From the IMG/VR virus record IMGVR_UViG_3300011466_000001, positions 1-42,448 of that record: DNA of 42,448 nt. One strand, 5' to 3'. The notes under the pieces are model-generated. The model was not told where the DNA came from, made no database searches, and saw only the letters and a program-made list of their open reading frames with translations. Shown here in pieces: positions 23,675 to 42,448 of this stretch. Position 1 is the first letter of the stretch; each line of letters starts with the position of its first letter. This DNA comes from a virus. A program made the translations under genes and the position numbers.

Positions 23675-23704
23675 AGCAACTATCCTTTCTGATTGAGGTG
23701 TAAA

Positions 23705-24079
23705 ATGAGCAACTATAAAAAGACTAAAGACGACTTTTCTAAAGAATTTCAAATGAATGTTCAAATGCTCCAATTAAGCTCTGATACTAATTACCCGGAC
23801 TTATATTCTGAAAAATTACCACTAGTTATACCTCCCTACGAATCAAGAGGTGGTTTCATTGCATTCCATGTAAACGAATTTGATTATCTACCTCTGCAAG
23901 CTAGTTCGTTTAGTTTAGAAATAAATACTTCGAGATCCAAATGGTCGACTGAAATGCAAATTTATTCTGATAATATGAGTGACTTCACGTATACAGGAAA
24001 CGGAGTTATCGGTGATGCGGTCATACAATCAACCAAGCTGCAAAGACTATTATTCCGGTTAAGAAAACGATTGAAATAA
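23705..24079 (+). CDS. Orphan plus-strand protein (moron-like), unknown function
   Basis: 124 aa. SD GAGGTG lies before the ATG at 23705. It is opposite in orientation to its neighbours. A CCCC/GGGG hairpin plus T-run lies at about 24188..24215. Confidence 0.5.
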   Translation: MSNYKKTKDDFSKEFQMNVQMLQLSSDTNYPDLYSEKLPLVIPPYESRGGFIAFHVNEFDYLPLQASSFSLEINTSRSKWSTEMQIYSDNMSDFTYTGNGVIGDAVIQSTKLQRLLFRLRKRLK

Positions 24080-24182
24080 AATATATAATTATTTCTACCC
24101 ACTTCCAGCCAGACAAAGTTCTGAGAAAATATGTCCAAAATAAAAACAATAATCCTAAAATCAAGTATCCCAATAATTTCAC
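24021..24182 (-). CDS. Candidate 53-aa two-TM peptide
   Basis: GTG start preceded by GGAAGGAGGGG. It is very hydrophobic. It overlaps the convergent plus-strand gene by 59 nt, so it is uncertain. Confidence 0.25.
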   Translation of the reverse strand: MKLLGYLILGLLFLFWTYFLRTLSGWKWVEIIIYFISIVFLTGIIVFAAWLIV

Positions 24183-24214
24183 CCTAGCCCCTCCTTCCGT
24201 GTGGGGTTATTTTT

Positions 24215-24403
24215 TTATCCAATACTCCAGTTGTGATCAGTTACTTCATCAATTCCCAATAAATCTGCAATAGCATAGATGTGCTCTTTCATAAGCTCTT
24301 GAAAGTCCTCGTAAGTTGCTGGTTTTCCATCTACTTGTAAATTCGATGATTCGGCAAACTCAGCCGCACTTTTTAACGCATCTTTGACGTTCTCAAATTC
24401 CAT
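24215..24403 (-). CDS. Hypothetical acidic small protein
   Basis: 62-aa ORF, start-stop coupled to the upstream gene. Confidence 0.45.
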   Translation of the reverse strand: MEFENVKDALKSAAEFAESSNLQVDGKPATYEDFQELMKEHIYAIADLLGIDEVTDHNWSIG

Positions 24404-24600
24404 TATTTATCCTCCAATTCCATTACGTTTAATCTTTTTCTTAAATCTTTAATCTTGATCAACATAAGATTAACTTTGTTTAATATTTCGTTTGATGTGT
24501 CCATCCACAAAATAGACATCGCTTCTTTTTCAAGCGAATCTAATTCTTTATGCGCAAGAGTTACTATTGTTTCTGCAGAAATATCAACTTTGATTTTCAA
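24403..24600 (-). CDS. Hypothetical small protein
   Basis: 65 aa. TTG start with SD GGAGGAT 7 nt upstream. Confidence 0.4.
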   Translation of the reverse strand: MKIKVDISAETIVTLAHKELDSLEKEAMSILWMDTSNEILNKVNLMLIKIKDLRKRLNVMELEDK

Positions 24601-24654
24601 GATTGTTGATCCTCCAATTCTAGTCTTTTTTCGAACGTTATTTTCGTCTCATCT

Positions 24655-25419
24655 TTAGGCAGAAATTTCTTCATTTCCTAAAAACTTATTTACAAAATAT
24701 AGTTGCCCTTTACCAGTGATCAACGGAGTAAATTTAGTTACTAATACACCTTGACTGTTTGTTCTTAAGTGCTCTCTTACCTCCATAACTTTCAAATCAA
24801 GAGATCGTTGGGTTGGGTGATTCTTTCGACGTCCATCTTGGCAAAGATACCCATTATCTCTTAACCAATCGAACAAACGATTCTGTCCGATATCAATACC
24901 ATTTTGTTTCAGGATAGTTGCCAATTCTTTGACCAGACACGAATTTCCACTGGCTCTTACTGCATCTGAAAACAGTGCTTTAGGCTGCATTTCTTGGATA
25001 ATCAAATCTTTCTGCTTGAGTTGCTCGCCAGCCTGTAAAAGTAAATCAGCTAATGAATTCGGGTTGTGCGTGATATCATATGCTTTTTGATCAGTTAGGT
25101 ACGCGCCGTGTTTGCGGATTGTTGGTAGAACTTCGCTTGTTACCCAACGTTTGAATTTTTTTGCATTGGGAAGTTTGCTTGATAAAATCAATGAATATAA
25201 ACCTGATTCGTTAATGATTGTTAATCCTCGTGGAGATTCAAAAGTACCGTTTTGGTAGTTTTGACGATCTTCTTCATCAACATGGCGATTAATATCTCGA
25301 CTACCGTTTCGGTACCCTAAAATATCCGCTACATCTTTTCCTACAAAATATGGCTCATCATTTACTAAAACCGTTCGAACTTTGTTTTGTTCGAAATTAA
25401 AAATTTGTGGTGTGTTCAT
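24655..25419 (-). CDS. Bro-N / KilAC-domain antirepressor
   Basis: N-terminal Bro-N signature FNFEQNKVRTVLVNDEPYFVGKDVADILGY. C-terminal KilAC-like block LVKELATILKQNGIDIGQNRLFDWLRDNGYL. Confidence 0.8.
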   Translation of the reverse strand: MNTPQIFNFEQNKVRTVLVNDEPYFVGKDVADILGYRNGSRDINRHVDEEDRQNYQNGTFESPRGLTIINESGLYSLILSSKLPNAKKFKRWVTSEVLPTIRKHGAYLTDQKAYDITHNPNSLADLLLQAGEQLKQKDLIIQEMQPKALFSDAVRASGNSCLVKELATILKQNGIDIGQNRLFDWLRDNGYLCQDGRRKNHPTQRSLDLKVMEVREHLRTNSQGVLVTKFTPLITGKGQLYFVNKFLGNEEISA

Positions 25420-25497
25420 TTTTTTAAATCCTTTCTGTTGTATAATTTCCTTATCAGTCAGTGGTCGGCTGAAATAATGATAAGGAGGTGGAAAATC
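25415..25497 (+). promoter_or_regulatory. Regulatory cassette copy 1 (divergent RBS, TATAAT, 9-bp dyad overlapping the SD)
   Basis: ttcattttt..atcctttctgttgTATAATttCCTTATCAgt..N..TGATAAGGAGGtgg. Dyad arms are at 25448..25456 and 25478..25486. Confidence 0.6.
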
Positions 25498-25677
25498 ATG
25501 TATTTTGTTATCAGAAAAGCTACTAACGGTCAGTACTATTTTGTGATTAAAGCTGGCAATAACGAAGTAGTCGCTACTAGCGAAACCTATTTCTATAAAG
25601 AATCTGCCGAGAAAACTATTGATTCAATTAAGAAAGGAATCAACAGAGAATCAACCGTTGTTGACATGACCGATTAG
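25498..25677 (+). CDS. DUF1508 (YegP-like) small protein
   Basis: MYFVIRKATNGQYYFVIKAGNNEVVATSETYFYKESAEKTIDSIKKG matches the YegP/DUF1508 repeat pattern. SD AAGGAGGTGG. Confidence 0.7.
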   Translation: MYFVIRKATNGQYYFVIKAGNNEVVATSETYFYKESAEKTIDSIKKGINRESTVVDMTD

Positions 25678-25770
25678 CCTATATAATTCATTTGCTAGAG
25701 AAGTCATTTCTGCCGCTTTTTCCAGAAGCTGGTCGGCGATTTTCTCTAGTTCTTTTTCTTTATCATTCAT
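25651..25770 (-). CDS. Candidate 39-aa protein
   Basis: MNDKEKELEKIADQLLEKAAEMTSLANELYRLIGHVNNG. AGAAAGGA lies 8 nt before the ATG. Its 3' end overlaps the plus-strand gene by 27 nt. Confidence 0.35.
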   Translation of the reverse strand: MNDKEKELEKIADQLLEKAAEMTSLANELYRLIGHVNNG

Positions 25771-25845
25771 TTTTATTATCCTTTCTTTGGTATAATTTCC
25801 TTATCAGTGCGACAGACTGAAATAATTGATAAGGAGGTGGAACAT
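25765..25845 (+). promoter_or_regulatory. Regulatory cassette copy 2
   Basis: Same architecture as 25415..25497. TATAAT is at 25791..25796. Dyad arms are at 25798..25806 and 25827..25835. Confidence 0.6.
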
Positions 25846-26055
25846 ATGAACTTTTCTCAAGCTGATGCCGTTTGCGAATCTTTGCAAAATGTTTTAAACA
25901 CCATTAAAGACGGTTTTTATCTAACTGATGATACTGAAAATGAAATTGTTGGATTCAATCCAATTGACTCTTGGATAGTTGAAACCATCTATGACAACGG
26001 CGAATCTAGACTAGTCCATTGTTCAAACGTTTCTATTCTTTCGAAACACTATTAG
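25846..26055 (+). CDS. Orphan plus-strand protein, unknown function
   Basis: 69 aa, acidic. SD AAGGAGGTGG before the ATG at 25846. Confidence 0.55.
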   Translation: MNFSQADAVCESLQNVLNTIKDGFYLTDDTENEIVGFNPIDSWIVETIYDNGESRLVHCSNVSILSKHY

Positions 26056-26155
26056 GATCATGAATAATTTTTACCAACTGTTGCTCTAGGTTGCTTCCGA
26101 CAGCTTGGAGCAATTTTGCTATTTCTTCTGGTGTTGCTTCAATTGTGATTTTCAT
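26033..26155 (-). CDS. Candidate 40-aa protein
   Basis: MKITIEATPEEIAKLLQAVGSNLEQQLVKIIHDPNSVSKE. SD GAAGGAGGA. Its 3' end overlaps the plus-strand gene by 23 nt. Confidence 0.4.
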   Translation of the reverse strand: MKITIEATPEEIAKLLQAVGSNLEQQLVKIIHDPNSVSKE

Positions 26156-26171
26156 TTTGCATCCTCCTTCT

Positions 26172-26315
26172 CTATCGTTTTTTATCGACACAATCCATAA
26201 CAGCCTTTACAGTCCGTTCAGCTACTTCCTTAGGCATTTTGTCGCCATCTTTCACTGGACGACCATCGCTTGACCAGAAGAAATTAATTTTTGGATTTTC
26301 AACTACTTTTGACAT
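26172..26315 (-). CDS. Candidate 47-aa protein
   Basis: MSKVVENPKINFFWSSDGRPVKDG.. SD AAAGGAGG 7 nt before the ATG. Confidence 0.45.
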   Translation of the reverse strand: MSKVVENPKINFFWSSDGRPVKDGDKMPKEVAERTVKAVMDCVDKKR

Positions 26316-26331
26316 TTGAAAACCTCCTTTT

Positions 26332-27081
26332 TTATCTAGCTAATTCATTAGCGAAACTTTCAATGAACGCCTTACCTTTAGCAGTCCATTTTTGCTTGTC
26401 AGCAGTTTTGCCTACACCTCTGTACCCTTTATCCTGGTACTTAGCGTATAAGTGCCATTTGAAGCCTTTGCTCATTCGTTGTGGATAAACAATGCCTAGC
26501 TCGTGAAGCTTCTTACAGAAAAGATAGACACCAGGACCGCCGCTATAACCGAACTGACTTGCAACTTCTTCTGTTGTGTAAAGGACATCTGTTTTAATCT
26601 GTTCCAAAACACCTTGTTCAAAGTCTTGCTGATTCAACTGTGCTTTCAATTTCTCGTTTTCTTCCACGGTATCAGCAAGCTGTCTTAATGCGCTAGCATA
26701 GTTTTGAGGTAAGGAAAGTTTTGGTTGCTTCAACTCTTGTTCCATTTGATTGAATTGAGCGATATACTGAAGTTTGAATTTTGTTGCCTTTTCGCCTTGG
26801 TAGCCCATGACTAACAATGTCCAGCCGTCCTTGTTCATGTAGATCATTGGGTATCTGCGTTTGTTGCCTTCAGCTTGGTAATAATCTTCCAGAAACATTG
26901 ATGTATCAACAGAGCGCAAATCTGCGCTTTCTAAATCTTTCTTGATTTCAACCTTTTTTATATCGCTTCTGAGATTTCTAATATCACGCATGACATCTTT
27001 ATGGTTTTTCTCAAATGTCTCAGCAACTTGCAAACTTGTTGTAACTGGTTGAGCGTTTTTGATTTGTACTAGATTTGTCAT
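26332..27081 (-). CDS. Rha-family phage regulatory protein / antirepressor
   Basis: The N-terminus PVTTSLQVAETFEKNHKDVMRDIRNL is the Phage_pRha signature. It is the second gene of the early rightward-type operon. Confidence 0.7.
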   Translation of the reverse strand: MTNLVQIKNAQPVTTSLQVAETFEKNHKDVMRDIRNLRSDIKKVEIKKDLESADLRSVDTSMFLEDYYQAEGNKRRYPMIYMNKDGWTLLVMGYQGEKATKFKLQYIAQFNQMEQELKQPKLSLPQNYASALRQLADTVEENEKLKAQLNQQDFEQGVLEQIKTDVLYTTEEVASQFGYSGGPGVYLFCKKLHELGIVYPQRMSKGFKWHLYAKYQDKGYRGVGKTADKQKWTAKGKAFIESFANELAR

Positions 27082-27104
27082 TTTGAAACTTCCTTTCTTG
27101 TGGG

Positions 27105-27347
27105 TTATGTTGTTTGTTTATTTTGTAGCGTAAATGCGACTTTACCACCAAAAAAAATTTCGATTGCTTCTTGATCAGTTAACGGAATTTCTAACTTCAT
27201 TTTTTTTGCTTCTTCAATCGAGAAATCTCCACCTTTTTTCATTTTTCGATAAAAAGTACTTCGATCGATTCCGATTGAATCTGCTACTGCTTGTTGAGTA
27301 GTGCCCCGCTCTACGATAAGACCTTTTAATTTGTTTGTGTTGATCAT
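27105..27347 (-). CDS. Cro-like XRE-family HTH regulator
   Basis: 80 aa starting at the ATG at 27347 (SD AAAGGAGTGAGG). HTH TTQQAVADSIGIDRSTFYRKMK. It is divergent from the CI-like gene. Confidence 0.7.
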   Translation of the reverse strand: MINTNKLKGLIVERGTTQQAVADSIGIDRSTFYRKMKKGGDFSIEEAKKMKLEIPLTDQEAIEIFFGGKVAFTLQNKQTT

Positions 27348-27394
27348 GAACCTCACTCCTTTCTTTTGTCGCATTATCGCGACTTGTTAAAACA

Positions 27395-27423
27395 AATATA
27401 CCACCCTATTATTTATTAGTCAA
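27395..27423 (-). promoter_or_regulatory. Early lytic promoter (PR-like)
   Basis: Minus strand: TTGACT - 17 nt - TATATT. Confidence 0.55.
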
Positions 27424-27430
27424 TTAAAAA

Positions 27431-27469
27431 GTTGCATTAATGCGATTTATTTTGTTGCATTTTTGCAAC
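27431..27469. promoter_or_regulatory. Operator half-palindromes in the switch region
   Basis: GTTGCAttaaTGCGAt (27431..27446) and the perfect palindrome GTTGCAttttTGCAAC (27454..27469). The second overlaps the -35 of the repressor promoter. Confidence 0.5.
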
Positions 27470-27483
27470 GTATGTTTTATACT
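27455..27483 (+). promoter_or_regulatory. Repressor maintenance-type promoter (PRM-like)
   Basis: TTGCAT - 17 nt - TATACT, about 20 nt upstream of the CI-like start. Confidence 0.5.
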
Positions 27484-27503
27484 CTTTTTAAGAGGTGAGT
27501 GAA

Positions 27504-30162: not shown

Positions 30163-30182
30163 TCTTGCGAGGAGTGATTGAT

Positions 30183-30473
30183 ATGCAAATACCATTAGCG
30201 CATCAAAGAACCTACGCATTAGAAAGATATTACTACGAGTTTATCGAGAGGATGGGTCCAGCACATTTCATGTATGACCAGTTTGTTAGGACAATGGAAA
30301 ATTTTGGGAAACCCTATTTCACTGTACCCATCAGCTATAGTCATTATTCGGAAGAGCTGGCTTTTGTATTTAAAATAGACGGCGAAAATTATCTGTTCGA
30401 TCACGTTAGGACCCAAGACAAAATTCTCCGAAAATACGATCCGAATATAAAATATAAGCCCGGTGGAAATTAA
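30183..30473 (+). CDS. attP-proximal moron protein, unknown function
   Basis: 96 aa. SD GAGGAGTG. It has its own promoter and terminator, and I recognise no family. Confidence 0.55.
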   Translation: MQIPLAHQRTYALERYYYEFIERMGPAHFMYDQFVRTMENFGKPYFTVPISYSHYSEELAFVFKIDGENYLFDHVRTQDKILRKYDPNIKYKPGGN

Positions 30474-30486
30474 AGCAACAAAAAAG

Positions 30487-30509
30487 CCCCCTACTCAAAC
30501 GAGTAAGGG
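30487..30509 (+). terminator. Hairpin copy 1 (terminator of the moron)
   Basis: CCCUACUC-aaac-GAGUAAGGG followed by AUUUCUCUAUU. 22/23 nt identical to 30746..30768. Confidence 0.5.
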
Positions 30510-30625
30510 ATTTCTCTATTGTGTCATGAATTTACAATTACAATATGCTGAAAAACATAAAAGTATTTTAGACGATATTCTAATCAATAATATCTATTAC
30601 GTTGAAATAATGATAAAATAAACAA

Positions 30626-30745: not shown

Positions 30746-30768
30746 CCCCCTACTCAAAAGAGTAAGGG
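30746..30768. terminator. Hairpin copy 2 (next to the endolysin stop)
   Basis: CCCCUACUC-aaaa-GAGUAAGGGG, 9 nt from the endolysin stop. It is followed by a T-rich stretch on the plus strand. Confidence 0.45.
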
Positions 30769-30777
30769 GTGTTTGTG

Positions 30778-31722
30778 TTATAACTTATTGTTGTTTAGTG
30801 CTTTTTGCAAAGCTTTAACTGCGTTGGATGTTGGGCTGATGATACCATCTTGTGTTGTGCCTAATCGTTTCTGTAATGCCTTGATAGTTGCTTGGCCAAG
30901 AAGTCCATCTTGCGTAACGCCTAACAATTTTTGCAATGCTTTAATTACATTAGATCCTTTTAGTGTAGAATCAAATTGCGCTGCATAAACATTTTGATTG
31001 TACTTTTGCTTGTACTGATGACTAATCACACCATCTTGTGTTGTGCCAAAGTATTGTTGCAATCGTTTTGCAGTAGCAGCGCCGAATTTACCATCCACTG
31101 TTAGCTGGCTATAACTAGGCTTAGCGGTACTCGTTGTTGATCCGTTGTTAGATGTACTAGGTTTAGCAACTGTGGCATCGTTGCTAGTAGATTTTCCAAA
31201 CACCGCTTCTTTAAACCGTTCTAATTCACTTGGTTTACTTACCCATGGCGCTGGACAATTTTTGCCAGTCACATCGTAATGCCGCCAGATTGTATTTCTT
31301 GTAATTGCTGGATATTTGGCAACCAATTCTTTGACTGCTTTTACGGAATTTTGGAAAGTCTTTTCGGTGATATTCCCATTCTTATCCAGACACATTTCCA
31401 AGCCAATAGCGCCGTAGTTAGCATTGCCAATCTTAGAATACAAAGGTTTGTAAATCGTGCCGTCAGCGTTGTATTTTACCGTGTCGTTTGCATGGTAAGC
31501 GACTTCGTCTAACGGAATGATACAAATAGCTTCATTGTCATCTACAAACAAATGAGCAGATGCGTAGATGCCGTTTAGGTTATTGAAATACGTTTTATGG
31601 TTGCGCGCAGTGCCACCGTTGTTTGCTGTATAATGCATGATCAAACCCTTAATGCCATAGTTCTTGATTCCTGGCCGAGAAAACTTGTTGATATTGATGT
31701 ACTCATATTTGATAAAACTCAT
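30778..31722 (-). CDS. Endolysin: N-acetylmuramoyl-L-alanine amidase (Amidase_2/PGRP) plus PG_binding_1 repeats
   Basis: The N-terminus (IMHYTANNGGTARNH..AHLFVDD..AYHAND) is amidase_2-like. The C-terminus has three repeats of the type G(T/V)TQDG(v/l/i)I..xT.KALQK. Confidence 0.85.
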   Translation of the reverse strand: MSFIKYEYININKFSRPGIKNYGIKGLIMHYTANNGGTARNHKTYFNNLNGIYASAHLFVDDNEAICIIPLDEVAYHANDTVKYNADGTIYKPLYSKIGNANYGAIGLEMCLDKNGNITEKTFQNSVKAVKELVAKYPAITRNTIWRHYDVTGKNCPAPWVSKPSELERFKEAVFGKSTSNDATVAKPSTSNNGSTTSTAKPSYSQLTVDGKFGAATAKRLQQYFGTTQDGVISHQYKQKYNQNVYAAQFDSTLKGSNVIKALQKLLGVTQDGLLGQATIKALQKRLGTTQDGIISPTSNAVKALQKALNNNKL

Positions 31723-36963: not shown

Positions 36964-39900
36964 CTAAATGTTTAACTCGGTATATCCAAGTTGTTGATGG
37001 TATTTGTTGATTTCTTTTACTGCAATACGCCCAAACTCTTTACCGCCGATATTGATAATAATATCCCCATTAGCCGCTTGAGTTGGTGTTGCACCCATTG
37101 CAGAAATTGCGTTCATCAATGTAGTTGCCATTGAAGTTGTGAAGTCTTTCATTCCGCCGCCATCATAGTTCATTTGGTTGTTGTTACTGAACGTACTATT
37201 TGATGGTGTGAACGTTGGCGTTTGGAACATTTCTGGCAACAATATGCTTGAGTTGAACATATCAAGTCCAAGATACTCAACAGCTTGTTGAATCAATTCA
37301 GCGGCACGTTGAGGTTTCTCAAGTGGAATGACCATCTCTTTCTTGTTGCCTTCTCCCATACGATACAAACCGTCTTGGTTTACTAACCCACCGTTTTCAT
37401 AACCGACGATTCTTCGACCAGTTGGTCCCCAACCTCTGCGACCATAAGGGAGGTCATACCGCCAATTTGAATTATTGAAGAAAGCTAACAATTGATGATA
37501 GCCATTAAAAATATTTTCATAGCCGCGAAGTTTATAAGCATTAAACGTGGACGGGATATATTGAAGCAGGCCTCTTGCTGGGTTCCCATTTGCCATGTTT
37601 ATATCCCACACAGCTGAGCTTTGAGTAATACTCTGATTACCGCCAGACTCTCTTTGGATTTGAGCGAGAACGCCGTTAATTTCAGAACTGCTAATCCGCT
37701 GTCCTAGTTTACTTGCCGCTTGTTTGATCTTGGAAGTCCATCCGCCGTTACCAACTGCAGCACCACCGATTGCACCAAAACCTGCGTTCTTATCAATATC
37801 ACTTGCTCCAAGTGAGCCGTTGATATGCAAATGATCGTAATGGTCATTCTGTGGCCATCTCACCCAACTTCCGCTCGATCCAGTACCAGACATTCCTTTT
37901 CGGTCTCGAACTTTACTTTGAGTGATTACGTAAGCTACTTTTGAAGCAAAGTTATCAAACACCCAGTTCGCTGGAGCAAAGTATTTCGAAGATCCGTTCA
38001 TACTTGCTGGATAGGCGACATCAATTGCTTGATGCTTTCCGTGGGAATGTGGATCACCTGGTCTAAAGCCAGAAGTGATTCTCATACCAGGATATCGATC
38101 GACAGTTTTTCTAGCGATATCATATAGGTATTTGTATACACCCCAACTCCCCATTGATCCATCAAACGAACTATTTTGTGCTTCATATCCTGCATTGAAC
38201 TTCGATTTAAACCATTCATAAGAACCTTCTGCGATCGTACCAACGGAACCTTTCGCCATTGATAGAGCCGGTTCAACAGCACCTTTCAAGTTAACGAACT
38301 TAGAAATTGCAGCATTCAAAAGCTTCTTCGGATTTGATGCATAAGACCAAATATCCGATGCAATTTCTTTTGCACCATTCCATTTCTCTTTAAACCATTC
38401 ACCTATACCATTTGCATAGGCTGGTACGCCATACATCGCAGCAGTCTTTGGACCACTTAAGACAGATGTTCCTTTTGGAAGGTTTACCATCAGATTTCTT
38501 TGCGCTGGAAAGATACCAGTACGTCCATCAGGTGTCCGATAAGCTTCTTGATAATTAGATCCTAGTCCGTCATTTACTAGGGCGGGGCCTCCCGGATGAT
38601 AACCAGTACCTTTCGCATACTTTGGAACTTTCCATGGATCTAATGTGCTCTTTCCAGCACCGACCCTTTTCAGTACCCAGTTAATTCCTTCGATAACGCC
38701 GTTAACTCCTTTTCCGATGACACTAACCATGCCAGTGAAGATTTTTCCAGCGCCTTCTTTGACAGATTTGACACCATTGCTCAAACCTTTACCAATCTTG
38801 CTACCTAATCCGGTTGCCCAGCCAGTAATTTTCCCGAAAGCTTCAGAAGCATTTTTCTTCATTGTTTCAAAAGATCCGCCCATACTAGTCTTAAGATTAG
38901 AAAATGCGGTACTTGCCTTAGTTTTAGCAGTTGATGCAGCAGTCGTTACCTTGCTTTGGATTTCTCCCCATTTTTCAGAAGTGTTCTTTTTAACATCTGA
39001 CCACCTATCGGAAACATTGGTTTTTAGATTGCTAAACGCTGTACTTGCTTTATCCTTGGCGGTACTTGCTGCTGTGGATACTTTATTTTTTACTTCGTCC
39101 CATTTCTCAGAAGTGTTTTTCTTAACATCTGACCATTTGTCACTAACATTTTTAGCAATGTCCTTCGCTTTTCCGGTAACAGCATTCTTTGCATCATTCC
39201 ATTTTTCACTAGTCCACTTAGTTACTTTCCCCCAAGCTTCAGATGTGGATGTTTTGATACCATCCCATTTCTCAGATATAACCTTGCCTAGTTTACCAGC
39301 CGCTTCTTTGATCTTATCCCAGTTTTTCCAGAGTAAAACACCAATAGCGATTACAGCCCCCACTGCTAAGATTACTAATCCGATCGGACTTAATAAGAAT
39401 GCAATGGCCGTTCCTAAAGCTGTTGTTATACCGGTTGCTATACCAGCTACGATGTTCCAAGCTGCTAACGCACCATTAACAACAAGAAAGGCAGCGCCAA
39501 ACGATCCGACGATGATTGCAAAGTTTGAGACGCCTTCTGAATGTTCAGAAATCCAGTCGCCTATATTAGTAAGTGCATCACCCAATTTTTCTAATACCGT
39601 TACAGCAATACCACCAGTCCATTCAGCTATAGGTTTCAACATGCTGTCCCACAACCATTTGAATGCTGGTTTAAAGCCTTCGATAACGCCATTCAACAAA
39701 TCAATAGCGCCACGTAACAAATCTAGGAACGCAGGAATTAAATCCTCAATGGCGTAAGAAGCTAACGGCAATAATACATTCTCATAGAACCAAGCTAATC
39801 CGCTGCCTATATTTTCCATAAGAGGTTGCATAGACTGAAGCAAGCCGTCTATTGATTCTAACAAAGGTGTGAAATCCAATTTCTTAGCCCATTCAACTGT

Positions 39901-42088: not shown

Positions 42089-42400
42089 CTACCTTTCTTC
42101 AATGAGTTTTCTTCTTTCTCTTGTTGCTTTGATAGCCTGCGCTTGGGCCAAGAAAATTTCTTGCTCACGCTGCATAGCTTGTTGCTTTGTTTCTTCCTCG
42201 GTCTTCGCTTCTTCAATCGCCTGTTCAATTTGTTTGAGAAACGGATAGGCTTCTTCAAATTTTGGCATATGCTTTGGATCGTTAAATGCGAAAACTGCTA
42301 GTCTTTGCTGCGAGTAGTCGAACATCGCTCTTTCTCGCAACTCATTCTCTTTGATCTTCTTATTTGCTTGGACTTGTATCATGATTTCCTCAAGTGTCAT
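42089..42400 (-). CDS. gpT-like C-terminal part of the G-T frameshift fusion (tail assembly chaperone)
   Basis: The reading frame stays open upstream of the listed ATG to the window end and on through 80..208 after circular closure. There it is the -1 frame of ORF 118..525. Confidence 0.6.
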   Translation of the reverse strand: MTLEEIMIQVQANKKIKENELRERAMFDYSQQRLAVFAFNDPKHMPKFEEAYPFLKQIEQAIEEAKTEEETKQQAMQREQEIFLAQAQAIKATRERRKLIEER

Positions 42401-42448
42401 TCCCCAATACTCTGTAGAGGGGATTCCTGCTTCAACGGCTTGCGGGTA
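42370..42448. repeat. Terminal direct repeat copy 2 (identical to 1..79)
   Basis: Direct comparison of the two window ends. Confidence 0.95.

Follow-up and report, generated by a model that had tools for sequence, protein, structure and literature searches.

Morons, a concept associated with Juhala and Hendrix, are promoter-gene-terminator units of lambdoid and other temperate phages that are expressed from the prophage. In the insertion sequences IS10 and IS50, the element's own transcript is translatable and read-through transcripts are silenced. This fold-back inhibition of the transposase mRNA was reportedly the subject of work by Davis, Simons and Kleckner in 1985 and by Schulz and Reznikoff in 1991. 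In T4-type phages, composite regulatory elements with a promoter and an early stem-loop have been described as PeSL cassettes (Arbiol et al. 2010, PMC2839356; Comeau et al. 2014, PMC4122927). In Bacillus subtilis, a 5' stem-loop or a strong ribosome-binding site (RBS) stabilises mRNAs, and BsRppH needs at least two unpaired 5' nucleotides and prefers G at +2; known stabilisers include Escherichia coli ompA and, in B. subtilis, the aprE leader, the SP82 polypurine stabiliser and hbs (PMC3997798).

Here we describe a repeated element that shares traits with all of these systems. The window analysed is the whole of IMG/VR virus record IMGVR_UViG_3300011466_000001 (42,448 nt), and it contains two ~80-nt cassettes with 84% column identity in their alignment. 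Our analysis suggests that each repeat is probably a portable module for the constitutive expression and the shuffling of morons, widespread in temperate phages of the Enterococcaceae.

The cassette pair in the window

Sequence reading and alignment confirmed that both cassettes contain a TATAAT hexamer, a dyad and a Shine-Dalgarno (SD) sequence, as a sequence-only reading of this DNA had described (Table 1). An exact search for the 9-mer TCCTTATCA found it in the window only at the four dyad arms, on the plus strand at the left arms and on the minus strand at the right arms. The right arm merges into the consensus SD AAGGAGGTGG, 7–8 nt 5' of the ATGs at 25498 and 25846. The divergent minus-strand starts noted earlier are also present: the ATG of the ant gene (Bro-N+ANT) at 25419 adjoins cassette 1, and the ATG of a putative 39-aa gene lies at the left edge of cassette 2. 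The 39-aa ORF is similar to the N-terminus of an ORF in the L137 sequence, which we take to be EF2034.

The first cassette precedes a DUF1508 gene and the second an ORFan, for which Pfam and PHROG gave no family. The GC contents of the two cargoes are 0.35 and 0.34, compared with 0.37–0.39 for ant, rha and the whole window, a small gap in short genes. A terminator scan of the interval between cargo 1 and cassette 2 found none. Downstream of cargo 2, a conserved 3' island (26080–26173) holds a terminator-like hairpin and the N-terminus of a 41-aa minus-strand ORF.

Table 1. Features of the cassette pair and its neighbourhood, in window coordinates
Feature	Position	Strand	Remarks	Basis
Cassette copy 1, whole homology island	25417..25500	+	From the start codon of the divergent ant gene to the cargo ATG	Alignment, nhmmer match
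RBS AGAAAGGA of divergent ant gene	25429..25436	-	In the conserved left part of cassette 1
−10 hexamer TATAAT, cassette 1	25441..25446	+	Without TGn and without recognisable −35
Left dyad arm TCCTTATCA, copy 1	25448..25456	+	−6 to +4 relative to the predicted +1
Predicted transcription start A, cassette 1	25453	+	7th nt after the −10, within the left dyad arm	Homology to V583 promoter
Inner hairpin, copy 1	25454..25472	+	TCAGTC / loop AGTGGTC / GGCTGA	Folds, covariation at two inner pairs
Linker GAAATAA, conserved, single-stranded	25471..25477	+	Columns 40-46 invariant in A2, in part because the search patterns fixed them
Right dyad arm TGATAAGGA running into consensus SD AAGGAGGTGG, copy 1	25478..25491	+	Arm at 25478-25486
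Cargo 1, 59-aa DUF1508 protein	25498..25677	+	phrog_1422	Pfam E=3.5e-14
39-aa ORF, putative gene	25651..25770	-	ATG at 25770; supplies, with its RBS and start, the left edge of cassette 2
Cassette copy 2, whole homology island	25767..25848	+		Alignment, nhmmer match, blastn HSPs
Extended −10 TGgTATAAT, cassette 2	25788..25796	+	TATAAT itself at 25791-25796
Left dyad arm, copy 2	25798..25806	+	Exact 9-mer TCCTTATCA
Predicted transcription start A, cassette 2	25803	+		Same V583 homology as for 25453
Inner hairpin, copy 2 (type B)	25804..25820	+	TCAGT / loop GCGACAG / ACTGA	Folds
Right dyad arm and SD, copy 2	25827..25840	+	Arm at 25827-25835
Cargo 2, 69-aa ORFan	25846..26055	+	ATG at 25846; no Pfam or PHROG family
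Intrinsic-terminator-like hairpin, T-rich tail	26080..26124	+	Ends the cargo-2 unit	Terminator scan, alignment, alifold

Spread, cargo and mosaic joints

The sequence-only reading had proposed looking for the cassette in related phages. Our census, drawn from 100 IMG/VR loci and 32 loci in species-representative genomes, counts 144 copies in 120 loci, which rules out a local duplication without wider conservation. The hosts comprise at least 18 Enterococcus species, Vagococcus and Pisciglobus, and the cassette also occurs in the published phages phiFL1-3, 4995_1, EG-TP1 and vB_ElaS_B1578. Among the plasmids of PLSDB, only two Enterococcus records carry it, and both are predicted to be non-mobilizable. 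A literal sequence search of the literature found the cassette in no paper.

Behind the cassettes stand small genes of 43 unrelated families, for the most part DUFs, whose products have a median length of 80 aa, in agreement with the earlier proposal of a shared portable module that drives different cargo. A divergent gene start adjoins the cassette in 119/137 instances, mostly within ~16 nt. Two or more copies are found at 22 loci; adjacent pairs lie on the same strand in 24/24 cases, and tandem direct copies are 349–572 bp apart. Cassettes and lysogeny genes are co-oriented in 146 of 148 pairs: the cassettes almost always have the orientation of the repressor and the integrase and lie antisense within the early lytic operon.

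In blastn comparisons, HSPs from many loci that cover copy 1 start at 25408–25441 and stop at 25488–25505, and those that cover copy 2 start at 25763–25786 and stop at 25837–25850. The cassettes are sharp homology islands with differing flanks, which makes them mosaic joints. Chimeric cassettes were also detected; for example, L025 combines an A-type hairpin with a C-type right arm, and L097 has a D/A hybrid stem. The 3' island, for its part, lies 200–670 nt downstream of a same-strand cassette in 34/36 cases, and the intervening cargo differs. Collectively, the module supplies autonomous expression signals to any gene behind it, the cassette is a homology patch at which phages exchange cargo genes, and a subset of the units has a second conserved patch at the 3' side, a putative terminator.

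Promoter, inner hairpin and outer dyad

The evidence supports the earlier reading of TATAAT as a real promoter element. The 91 distinct copies display the −10 variants TATAAT, TATACT, TAAAAT, TATAGT, TATTAT and GATAAT, in which A2 and T6 are always kept, and TGn is present in 58 of them; no recognisable −35 was found upstream of the cassette −10. The distance from the −10 to the stem is 7 nt in 82/91 copies; of the other nine, eight have 8 nt and one has 6 nt. In the window, the extended −10 is confined to copy 2, and copy 1 reads TTgTATAAT. Because copy 1 has neither TGn nor a −35, its promoter strength is uncertain.

A transcription start site (TSS) has been mapped on a homologous promoter. 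In the dRNA-seq data of E. faecalis V583 (Michaux 2020), a strong primary TSS was assigned to the last A of ...TTTTGGTATACTCTCCTTA, with a stepHeight of 5805 and an enrichment of >100. This V583 promoter reads ...GGTATACTCTCCTTA, with the mapped TSS at the A of CCTTA, and its −10, discriminator and +1 context are identical to those of cassette variants, the locus having been checked in L137. It represents a half cassette in a V583 prophage, after which follows a different, terminated short RNA flagged as antisense. Among the matches listed in the Michaux 2020 tables, none is a TSS on a complete cassette; the V583 TSS table contains entries 1957458 and 1957724, and 1957724 drives a DUF1508 homologue. 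By homology to the V583 half cassette, we infer that transcription in the window would start at 25453 and 25803. The cultures behind the V583 TSS table were presumably uninduced, in which case these entries, like the co-orientation with lysogeny genes, would be indirect evidence for expression from the repressed prophage. Since the predicted +1 falls inside the left arm, the cassette's own mRNA would lack most of that arm. A second, internal promoter, TTATCA-16-TGaAATAAT, was rejected: its −35 spacing drops to 14 nt in B-type copies, several variants (CTGAAATCTG, CTGAAATTTGG and CTGAAATGAA) have lost its putative −10, and it would also initiate within the SD.

The only covarying element is an inner 5–6-bp hairpin, CAGNN-AGUGGUC-NNCUG, located in what had been called a variable spacer. 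The spacer does differ in sequence between copies, but an invariant CTGAAATAA lies within it, together with the inner hairpin, of which there are two types. Pairing in the inner helix amounts to 97.6%. Across 35 distinct sequences, pair 28-36 is AU in 12, CG in 12 and GC in 9, and pair 27-37 is UG in 14, UA in 10 and CG in 9. The covariation score of the inner helix was 0.225, compared with 0.131 in shuffles; none of 500 shuffles reached 0.225, and slid partners scored at most 0.10. The genome matches, for which the search left these four positions as N, are paired in 32/32 cases; from them, pair 27-37 gains C-G and pair 28-36 gains U-A, its fourth Watson-Crick type. Even copies within one phage show covariation of the inner palindrome. 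The earlier argument that conserved arms around a diverged spacer speak for a functional dyad is therefore reversed, as the best-supported structure sits in the spacer.

The assignment of the hairpin to a strand rests mainly on the U.G pairs. Energies differ only mildly between the strands, the plus strand giving the stabler whole element in 60/91 copies and the stabler inner hairpin in 47 vs 44. The stem is less conserved than the 7-nt loop and GAAAUAA, a difference for which the search patterns are partly responsible. An intrinsic terminator role of the cassette hairpin was rejected, a U-tract being absent on both strands. A preQ1-I-like or tRNA D-arm-like hairpin was likewise discarded, inspection by eye having shown no convincing loop-tail pairing. 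Rfam searches of 25300–25950 with E up to 10 returned chance hairpin matches only (mir-184 at 23 bits, against a gathering score of 54), and PreQ1 was absent from them. As for a kissing partner of the loop, GACCACT/AGTGGTC occurs in the window only at chance frequency.

The full elements of the window fold on the plus strand with dG of −17.0 and −14.8 kcal/mol, better than shuffled sequences (z = −3.3 and −3.5), and a 12-bp lower stem then buries the SD. The SD is predicted to be open in the cassette's own transcript, with a median P(unpaired) of 0.95, versus 0.01 in read-through RNA; when the left arm is included, it is <20% accessible in 62/90 distinct cassettes. In the outer helix, only one cell of 35, at pair 16-57, carries a compensatory change; the other changes are one-sided or mismatched, and 17/35 sequences leave pair 17-56 unpaired. 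About one in three distinct arm combinations gives an outer duplex of ~0 to −3 kcal/mol, and the arms are 26, 27, 28 and 29 nt apart in 1, 18, 7 and 44 distinct copies, respectively. A left arm without a right arm is found in 21/92 distinct copies. Cognate and non-cognate arm pairings were compared by energies only, the independent sub-families being too few for statistics.

The 9-bp dyad is thus probably not the switch it was taken for. With the predicted +1 it cannot form in the cassette's own mRNA and so would not act as a switch on the cargo mRNA. Instead, it would be the lower stem of a bipartite hairpin that forms only in RNAs begun upstream of the cassette, where it would bury the SD in a fold-back geometry like that of IS10/IS50, and it appears to be dispensable in several sub-families. 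The outer dyad is nevertheless retained in ~70% of distinct copies and reaches 12 perfect bp in some (EG-TP1, L125/L129); this persistence and extension suggest some selected role outside our preferred explanation.

Readings of the element and known systems

According to our preferred explanation, a sigma-A −10 or extended −10 promoter would fire on the lysogeny strand, antisense to the early lytic operon, and transcription would begin at the A of CCTTATCAG, within the left dyad arm. The resulting mRNA would carry one unpaired nucleotide and then a stem-loop of the form CAGNN-AGUGGUC-NNCUG or CAGU-GYGACAG-RCUG. The linker GAAAUAAU, rich in A/U, would connect this to a near-perfect SD AAGGAGGUG, followed by the start codon of a small moron gene. 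Given the inferred +1, the hairpin lies within 0–2 nt of the 5' end, with one nucleotide unpaired. By analogy with protected leaders, the 5'-terminal hairpin and the strong SD would act together as an mRNA stabiliser and expression enhancer; with a single unpaired 5' nucleotide and no G at +2, the transcript would be a poor substrate for RppH/RNase J1. In addition, some factor may recognise the conserved loop. Selection on function is indicated by the −10 variants, the fixed distance from −10 to stem and the compensatory inner-stem changes. A pure stabiliser leaves the conservation of the loop and GAAAUAA above that of the stem unexplained.

A bolder extension, which we regard as unlikely, is that the cassette defines a regulon. 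The AGUGGUC loop and GAAAUAA would then be the site of a dedicated trans-factor (a host or phage protein, an RNase or an RNA) that controls dozens of lysogeny-strand genes across Enterococcaceae prophages. The bipartite hairpin would leave expression from its own promoter on and keep read-through or lytic RNA off, possibly coupled to antisense control of ant/rha.

Other readings place the function of the element in an RNA structure of a different kind. That the dyad is an SD-sequestering hairpin controlling cargo translation, as a switch or a thermometer, was one of two roles suggested by the sequence-only reading and appears quite unlikely to us. The stable fold with its buried SD (z about −3.4), the low SD accessibility of most cassettes when the left arm is included, the complementarity of up to 12 perfect bp in some variants and the right-arm transitions that yield G.U pairs (GATGAGG, GGTAAGG) would all suit such a hairpin. 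However, the left arm spans promoter positions −6 to +4 and the homologous start is at A, so that the cargo's own mRNA would not include this arm and its SD is predicted to be open. Further arguing against sequestration, the outer helix is almost without compensation and in many arm combinations contributes little energy, and the upstream gene lies on the other strand in most instances, so plus-strand read-through RNA with both arms should be rare. Both arms are certain only in minus-strand transcripts, which favours a reading that assigns the function to the early lytic mRNA of the minus strand or to a duplex between it and the cassette RNA. The complete hairpin, which precedes the RBS of the next early gene (ant, rha and others) by ~20 nt, would then be a processing or stabilising site of the RNase III type, as in T7 early RNA; alternatively, it would be a contact point for antisense control and for interference between transcription from the moron promoter and that of the lytic operon. 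In line with this, the minus-strand gene has its RBS and start within the conserved left part of the cassette, nearly all co-orientation tests show a promoter that converges with the early operon, the V583 half cassette drives an RNA flagged as antisense, and plus-strand A.C mismatches (GACAAGG, AATAAGG) become G.U on the minus strand. Conversely, the U.G at pair 27-37, present in 14/35 distinct copies and in every B-type copy, becomes A.C there, and the minus-strand fold is weaker (−12.0 and −9.4 kcal/mol, compared with −17.0 and −14.8 on the plus strand; means −10.0 vs −12.2). The minus strand also has no U-tract or other recognisable signal after the hairpin, and we consider a minus-strand function quite improbable.

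The dyad could also act as double-stranded DNA. The second role suggested earlier was an operator for a dimeric regulator such as CI, Cro or another phage or host protein, and its site at −6..+34, over a start located within the left arm as that proposal required, is a classical repressor position. The arms are moreover conserved in sequence and not by covariation, as protein contacts would predict. Nonetheless, no half-site (with at most one mismatch) was found in the cI/cro intergenic region (27375–27494), which has its own TTGCA-type palindromes, and the cassette is common to phages with unrelated immunity modules (S24-type CI here, ImmR/ImmA in 4995_1, phiFL3A). The variable spacing of 26–29 nt would rotate the half-sites by up to ~100 degrees, some distinct copies keep the left arm only, and covariation of the inner palindrome within one phage would not be explained by a single protein specificity. 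A conserved host factor could still be the binding protein; as a whole, the operator reading is very doubtful. Finally, the cassette might be a recombination patch only, kept alike by exchange and gene conversion, with no regulatory role for hairpin or dyad. The homology islands, the chimeric cassettes, the tandem direct copies and the presence of RecT/RecE-type recombinases in these phages are all consistent with exchange, but the inner-stem compensation, the promoter-preserving −10 variants, the fixed distance from −10 to stem and the conservation across genera, in Vagococcus and Pisciglobus, make a role in recombination alone extremely unlikely.

If the reading as a module for moron expression and shuffling holds, enterococcal prophage accessory genes, those of VRE lineages included, can be flagged by a ~75-nt sequence. 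A cassette search would then retrieve >40 small-protein families, among them DUF1508, DUF1883, DUF2513, DUF2321, KTSC and one PADLOC candidate; these proteins are mostly uncharacterised and likely expressed in lysogens, and would be candidates for defence, anti-defence or host modulation. The module would also provide a Gram-positive, temperate example of gene shuffling at regulatory cassettes, so far described in T4-type phages, and, for expression work in Enterococcus, a natural promoter/5'-hairpin/SD part of compact size.

The Enterococcus cassette resembles PeSL in function and composition; the two share no sequence similarity. Both are ~60–80-nt composite cassettes with a promoter that is, or here appears to be, of the sigma-70 type, a stem-loop, and an SD and start codon at the 3' edge, and both are repeated before small, mostly ORFan accessory genes. 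Both coincide with indels and gene replacements between related phages, and both occur as tandem direct copies from which the intervening gene might be excised. In PeSL, however, the promoter is preceded by the stem-loop, which acts as a terminator (PMC4122927), whereas here the stem-loop is in the leader, 7 nt past the −10, and has no U-tract. The Enterococcus cassette further differs in having no recognisable −35, in its Gram-positive hosts and temperate phages, and in running against the surrounding operon.

The predicted leader resembles the stabilisers in that it joins a near-perfect SD to a hairpin no more than one nucleotide away from the predicted 5' end, a combination known to be protective in B. 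subtilis; it differs in the sequence conservation of its loop and 3' flank, which simple stabilisers do not need. With IS10/IS50 it shares a 5' arm upstream of its own TSS and a 3' arm over the RBS, a geometry seen in the window and in the cassettes whose SD becomes poorly accessible once the left arm is included. Unlike IS10/IS50, the phage cassette is not an insertion sequence, upstream transcription on the same strand is probably uncommon, and roughly one variant in three has no fold-back helix. Like morons, the units are autonomous, lie between phage genes in the lysogeny orientation and carry small accessory cargo, and the cargo-2 unit has a predicted promoter, a gene and a terminator-like hairpin. 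Whereas classical morons each have an unrelated promoter, more than 40 cargoes here share a near-identical promoter-leader and often one 3' terminator island.

The two cassettes and their genome

Reading the sequence at 25100-26400 and aligning the two stretches confirmed that two near-identical cassettes, each with a TATAAT, a dyad, a Shine-Dalgarno sequence (SD) and a divergent minus-strand start, precede consecutive plus-strand genes. Column identity is 84%, and both share one feature order: divergent minus-strand start and RBS, TATAAT, left arm, spacer, right arm/SD and ATG. The exact 9-mer of the arms has no further occurrence across the 42.4-kb window. Against shuffled controls, both full elements folded more favourably (z = -3.3 and -3.5). 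The small genes behind the cassettes, hereafter cargoes, encode a 59-aa DUF1508 protein (copy 1) and a 69-aa protein with no family match (copy 2).

Features of the two cassettes in the window
Feature	Copy 1	Copy 2	Strand
ATG of divergent gene	25419 (ant, Bro-N+ANT)	25770 (39-aa ORF)	-
TATAAT	25441-25446	25791-25796	+
Left dyad arm TCCTTATCA	25448-25456	25798-25806	
Spacer between arms	21 nt	20 nt	
Right dyad arm TGATAAGGA, continuing into AAGGAGGTGG	25478-25486	25827-25835	
Cargo ATG	25498	25846	+

The genome in the window is that of a temperate Enterococcus phage; it is circularly permuted and has a capsid module related to that of phiFL3. An identical 79-bp direct repeat at 1-79 and 42370-42448 is most simply explained by overlapping ends of a phage assembly of ~42,369 bp that is circular or circularly permuted. 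The plus strand carries the serine integrase, an S24-type CI and both cassette genes; the minus strand carries a cro-like gene, endolysin, holin and the early genes examined (rha, ant and small ORFs). A plus-strand ORF (23693-24079, 128 aa) with no cassette upstream also lies within the minus-strand block. Additionally, a tandem direct repeat of 131/132 nt (72% identity) spans 38888-39150, with part of a third unit near 39252, and is possibly contained in a minus-strand gene. A G+C-rich hairpin, CCCCCTACTCAAACGAGTAAGGG, occurs in two copies (82%) at 30487-30520 and 30746-30779. The copies enclose ~225 bp, located between the endolysin gene and a small plus-strand ORF (30165-30473) that follows the integrase; the pair may represent bidirectional terminators around the attachment site.

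A cassette family at mosaic joints

Searching with a pattern built around CTGAAATAA and a portion of the left arm gave 100 IMG/VR loci, within which an nhmmer profile found additional diverged copies. A second pattern, with N at four inner-stem positions, yielded 32 loci from one-genome-per-species contigs, covering at least 18 Enterococcus species, two Vagococcus species and Pisciglobus. The cassette is therefore a family of 144 instances in 120 loci rather than a local duplication without conservation elsewhere, a possibility that the sequence-only reading had raised. In 22 loci two or three cassettes are present; within a locus they invariably share one strand, and many lie 349-572 bp from each other. 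Unannotated cassettes occur in phiFL1A/B/C, phiFL2A/B, phiFL3A/B (before gp05 and gp11), 4995_1, EG-TP1 and vB_ElaS_B1578, and the cassette is essentially absent from plasmids. Three more cassette contigs, labelled Stenotrophomonas (L110, 1.2 kb), Streptomyces (L111, 34 kb) and Flavobacterium (L128, 0.6 kb), are probably contamination with Enterococcus phage DNA. The host assignment of GenBank PQ554527, 'Acinetobacter phage D2SVT', looks doubtful; the matches of this record to an Enterococcus-type ant segment and to the cassette equal those of Enterococcus phage vB_ElaS_B1578 in identity and span.

The search in related phages bore out the proposal of a shared portable module for different cargo genes, as 43 unrelated cargo families lie behind the cassette (median length 80 aa, with start codons called crudely). 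Most of the 41 cargo representatives have no Pfam match, and the domains matched are mostly uncharacterised (DUF2513, DUF2321, DUF2188, DUF1883, DUF1508, KTSC, YjzC and zinc ribbons); one cargo matches the PADLOC candidate PDC-S16. The upstream gene is on the opposite strand in 119 of 137 instances, its start codon mostly within ~16 nt of the cassette, and 146 of 148 pairs of cassette and lysogeny gene are co-oriented (70 loci that also hold homologues of a repressor, ImmA or an integrase). It follows that the cassette is a marker of lysogeny-strand genes lying antisense within the early lytic operon.

When 24000-27500 was compared with all loci by blastn, homology to most of them was limited to the cassettes. 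The matches start at 25408-25441 or 25763-25786 and end sharply at the SD or start codon (25488-25505 or 25837-25850), with or without homology in the left-hand ant gene. One locus carries a chimeric cassette with an A-type hairpin and a C-type right arm (L025), and three others have hybrid stems (L097, L044 and L115). A second conserved island, at 26080-26173, is common to about 35 other phage loci. In 34 of 36 occurrences a same-strand cassette precedes it by 200-670 nt, with differing cargo in between. Within the island, the plus strand carries a terminator-like hairpin (TTGCTCC...GGAGCAA), after which comes TTTTGCTATTT. The hairpin lies within the coding sequence for the conserved N-terminus of a 41-aa minus-strand ORF (MKITIEATPEEIAKLLQA...), whose C-terminus varies together with the cargo gene that it overlaps. 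Conserved patches thus lie on both sides of many cargoes, the arrangement that would be expected for exchange via homologous recombination. Collectively, our results establish the cassette as a mosaic joint.

Promoter, leader hairpin and outer dyad

The -10 hexamer of the 91 distinct copies reads TATAAT in 76, TATACT in 7 and TAAAAT in 5, the remainder being TATAGT, TATTAT or GATAAT. A2 and T6 are retained in every variant, and 58 copies have TGn in front of the hexamer; no -35 is recognisable in the cassette. The dRNA-seq table of Michaux et al. 2020, whose entries give 50 nt upstream plus the TSS, contains an E. faecalis V583 primary TSS at 1957458(+) (stepHeight 5805, enrichment >100; string ending ...ATCGTTCATTTTGGTATACTCTCCTTA), which is one of the stronger TSSs among the matches listed and is annotated there as a putative antisense RNA to EF2034 (PMC7724050). 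Its promoter, discriminator and +1 context are those of the cassette (compare GATATACTCTCCTTATCAG in L089/L097, two of the collected loci), and the start nucleotide is an A, the 7th nt after the -10. The promoter and discriminator recur in a 'half cassette' of a V583-like prophage from IMG/VR (L137, 7896-7975), where a ~55-nt RNA with an intrinsic terminator, CCTAATCGTTGGCAGACGATTGGGG+TTTTTATTTT, replaces the hairpin and SD downstream of +1. A second V583 TSS, 266 nt downstream, has a simpler promoter and drives a DUF1508 homologue. By homology to the V583 half cassette, +1 in the window is predicted at 25453 and 25803. A start inside the left arm, to which the operator reading had been tied, is therefore supported by a mapped V583 start and predicted for the window itself. 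The cassette's own mRNA would therefore begin A-UCAG..., with one unpaired nt before the hairpin.

This hairpin, of 5-6 bp, lies in the 'spacer', its first base 7 nt from the -10 in 82 copies, 8 nt in 8 and 6 nt in 1. In a gapless alignment of 35 distinct copies, 97.6% of the inner helix is paired. Pair 28-36 occurs as A-U in 12, C-G in 12 and G-C in 9, and pair 27-37 as U.G in 14, U-A in 10 and C-G in 9. None of 500 shuffles and no slid control reached the covariation score of this helix. In the genome set, for which the search pattern had N at these positions, all 32 hits are paired; this set contributes C-G at 27-37 and, at 28-36, U-A as a fourth Watson-Crick type. Covariation driven by a co-evolving protein specificity is disfavoured, because single phages carry different stem variants (A and B in the window; B, C' and C in locus L066), which argues for a hairpin constraint. 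U.G pairs are frequent, which points to plus-strand RNA as the functional strand, although the energies of the two strands differ only mildly. Conservation is higher in the 7-nt loop (AGUGGUC; GYGACAG in the B type) and GAAAUAA than in the stem, a difference partly imposed by the search patterns, since these fix several alignment columns. A conserved host factor may bind cassette DNA or RNA, as the conserved loop hints.

The outer dyad is 88% paired in the 35 copies, among which double-sided change is essentially absent (a single cell, pair 16-57) and pair 17-56 is unpaired in 17. Whichever strand is considered, single substitutions are an even mixture of G.U-compatible and disruptive changes; arm-to-arm spacing is 26-29 nt, and 21 of 92 distinct copies have a left arm without a right arm. 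Outer duplex energies run from -11 kcal/mol (L125/L129, 12 perfect bp) to about 0, the likewise perfect 12 bp of EG-TP1 giving -8.4 kcal/mol; some diverged sub-families have alternative A/U-rich outer pairings with weak z-scores (-1.3 to -2.3). The SD is predicted to be closed in RNA that includes the left arm (P(unpaired) 0.01; <0.2 in 62/90 distinct copies) and open in the cassette's own mRNA (median 0.95). Translational control of the cargo mRNA by an SD-sequestering dyad, as proposed in the sequence-only reading, conflicts with the predicted TSS position and the missing covariation. Its other proposal, a CI/Cro operator, is likewise disfavoured: no dyad half-site was found in the cI/cro intergenic region (27375-27494), unrelated immunity modules share the cassette, and arm spacing is variable. 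This region holds TTGCA-type palindromes of its own (agTTGCAttaaTGCGAtt; tgTTGCAtttttGCAAcg) as well as divergent promoters, with TTGACT-17-TATATT on the minus strand; these elements, which have no relation to the dyad of the cassette, probably represent the actual immunity operators.

Proposed expression and known systems

The alignments and neighbouring genes establish a conserved promoter/hairpin/SD module with its orientation and context. B. subtilis mRNAs are guarded from RppH/RNase J1-dependent decay by features of the 5' hairpin/strong-SD type (review PMC3997798). A hairpin 1 nt from the 5' end, no G at +2 and a near-perfect SD would give cassette mRNAs such protective features. We propose that the module provides autonomous, probably constitutive, expression from the prophage strand, and that its antisense orientation would prevent a constitutive promoter from driving lytic genes. 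The lower stem of the dyad would form only in RNAs starting upstream of the cassette, the same fold-back geometry as in IS10/IS50. Selection of this geometry is in doubt, because plus-strand read-through into the cassette should be uncommon and the outer helix is dispensable in several sub-families.

We found no description of the cassette in the searchable literature and no matching Rfam family. The cassette units are morons in the classical sense; unlike classical morons, they share a nearly identical promoter-leader. The closest functional analogue is the PeSL cassette of T4-type phages, which is likewise composite, lies near small ORFan genes and has a role in modular shuffling. However, in PeSL cassettes a terminator stem-loop lies upstream of the promoter, which has a -35, and the phages that carry them are virulent and infect Gram-negative hosts.
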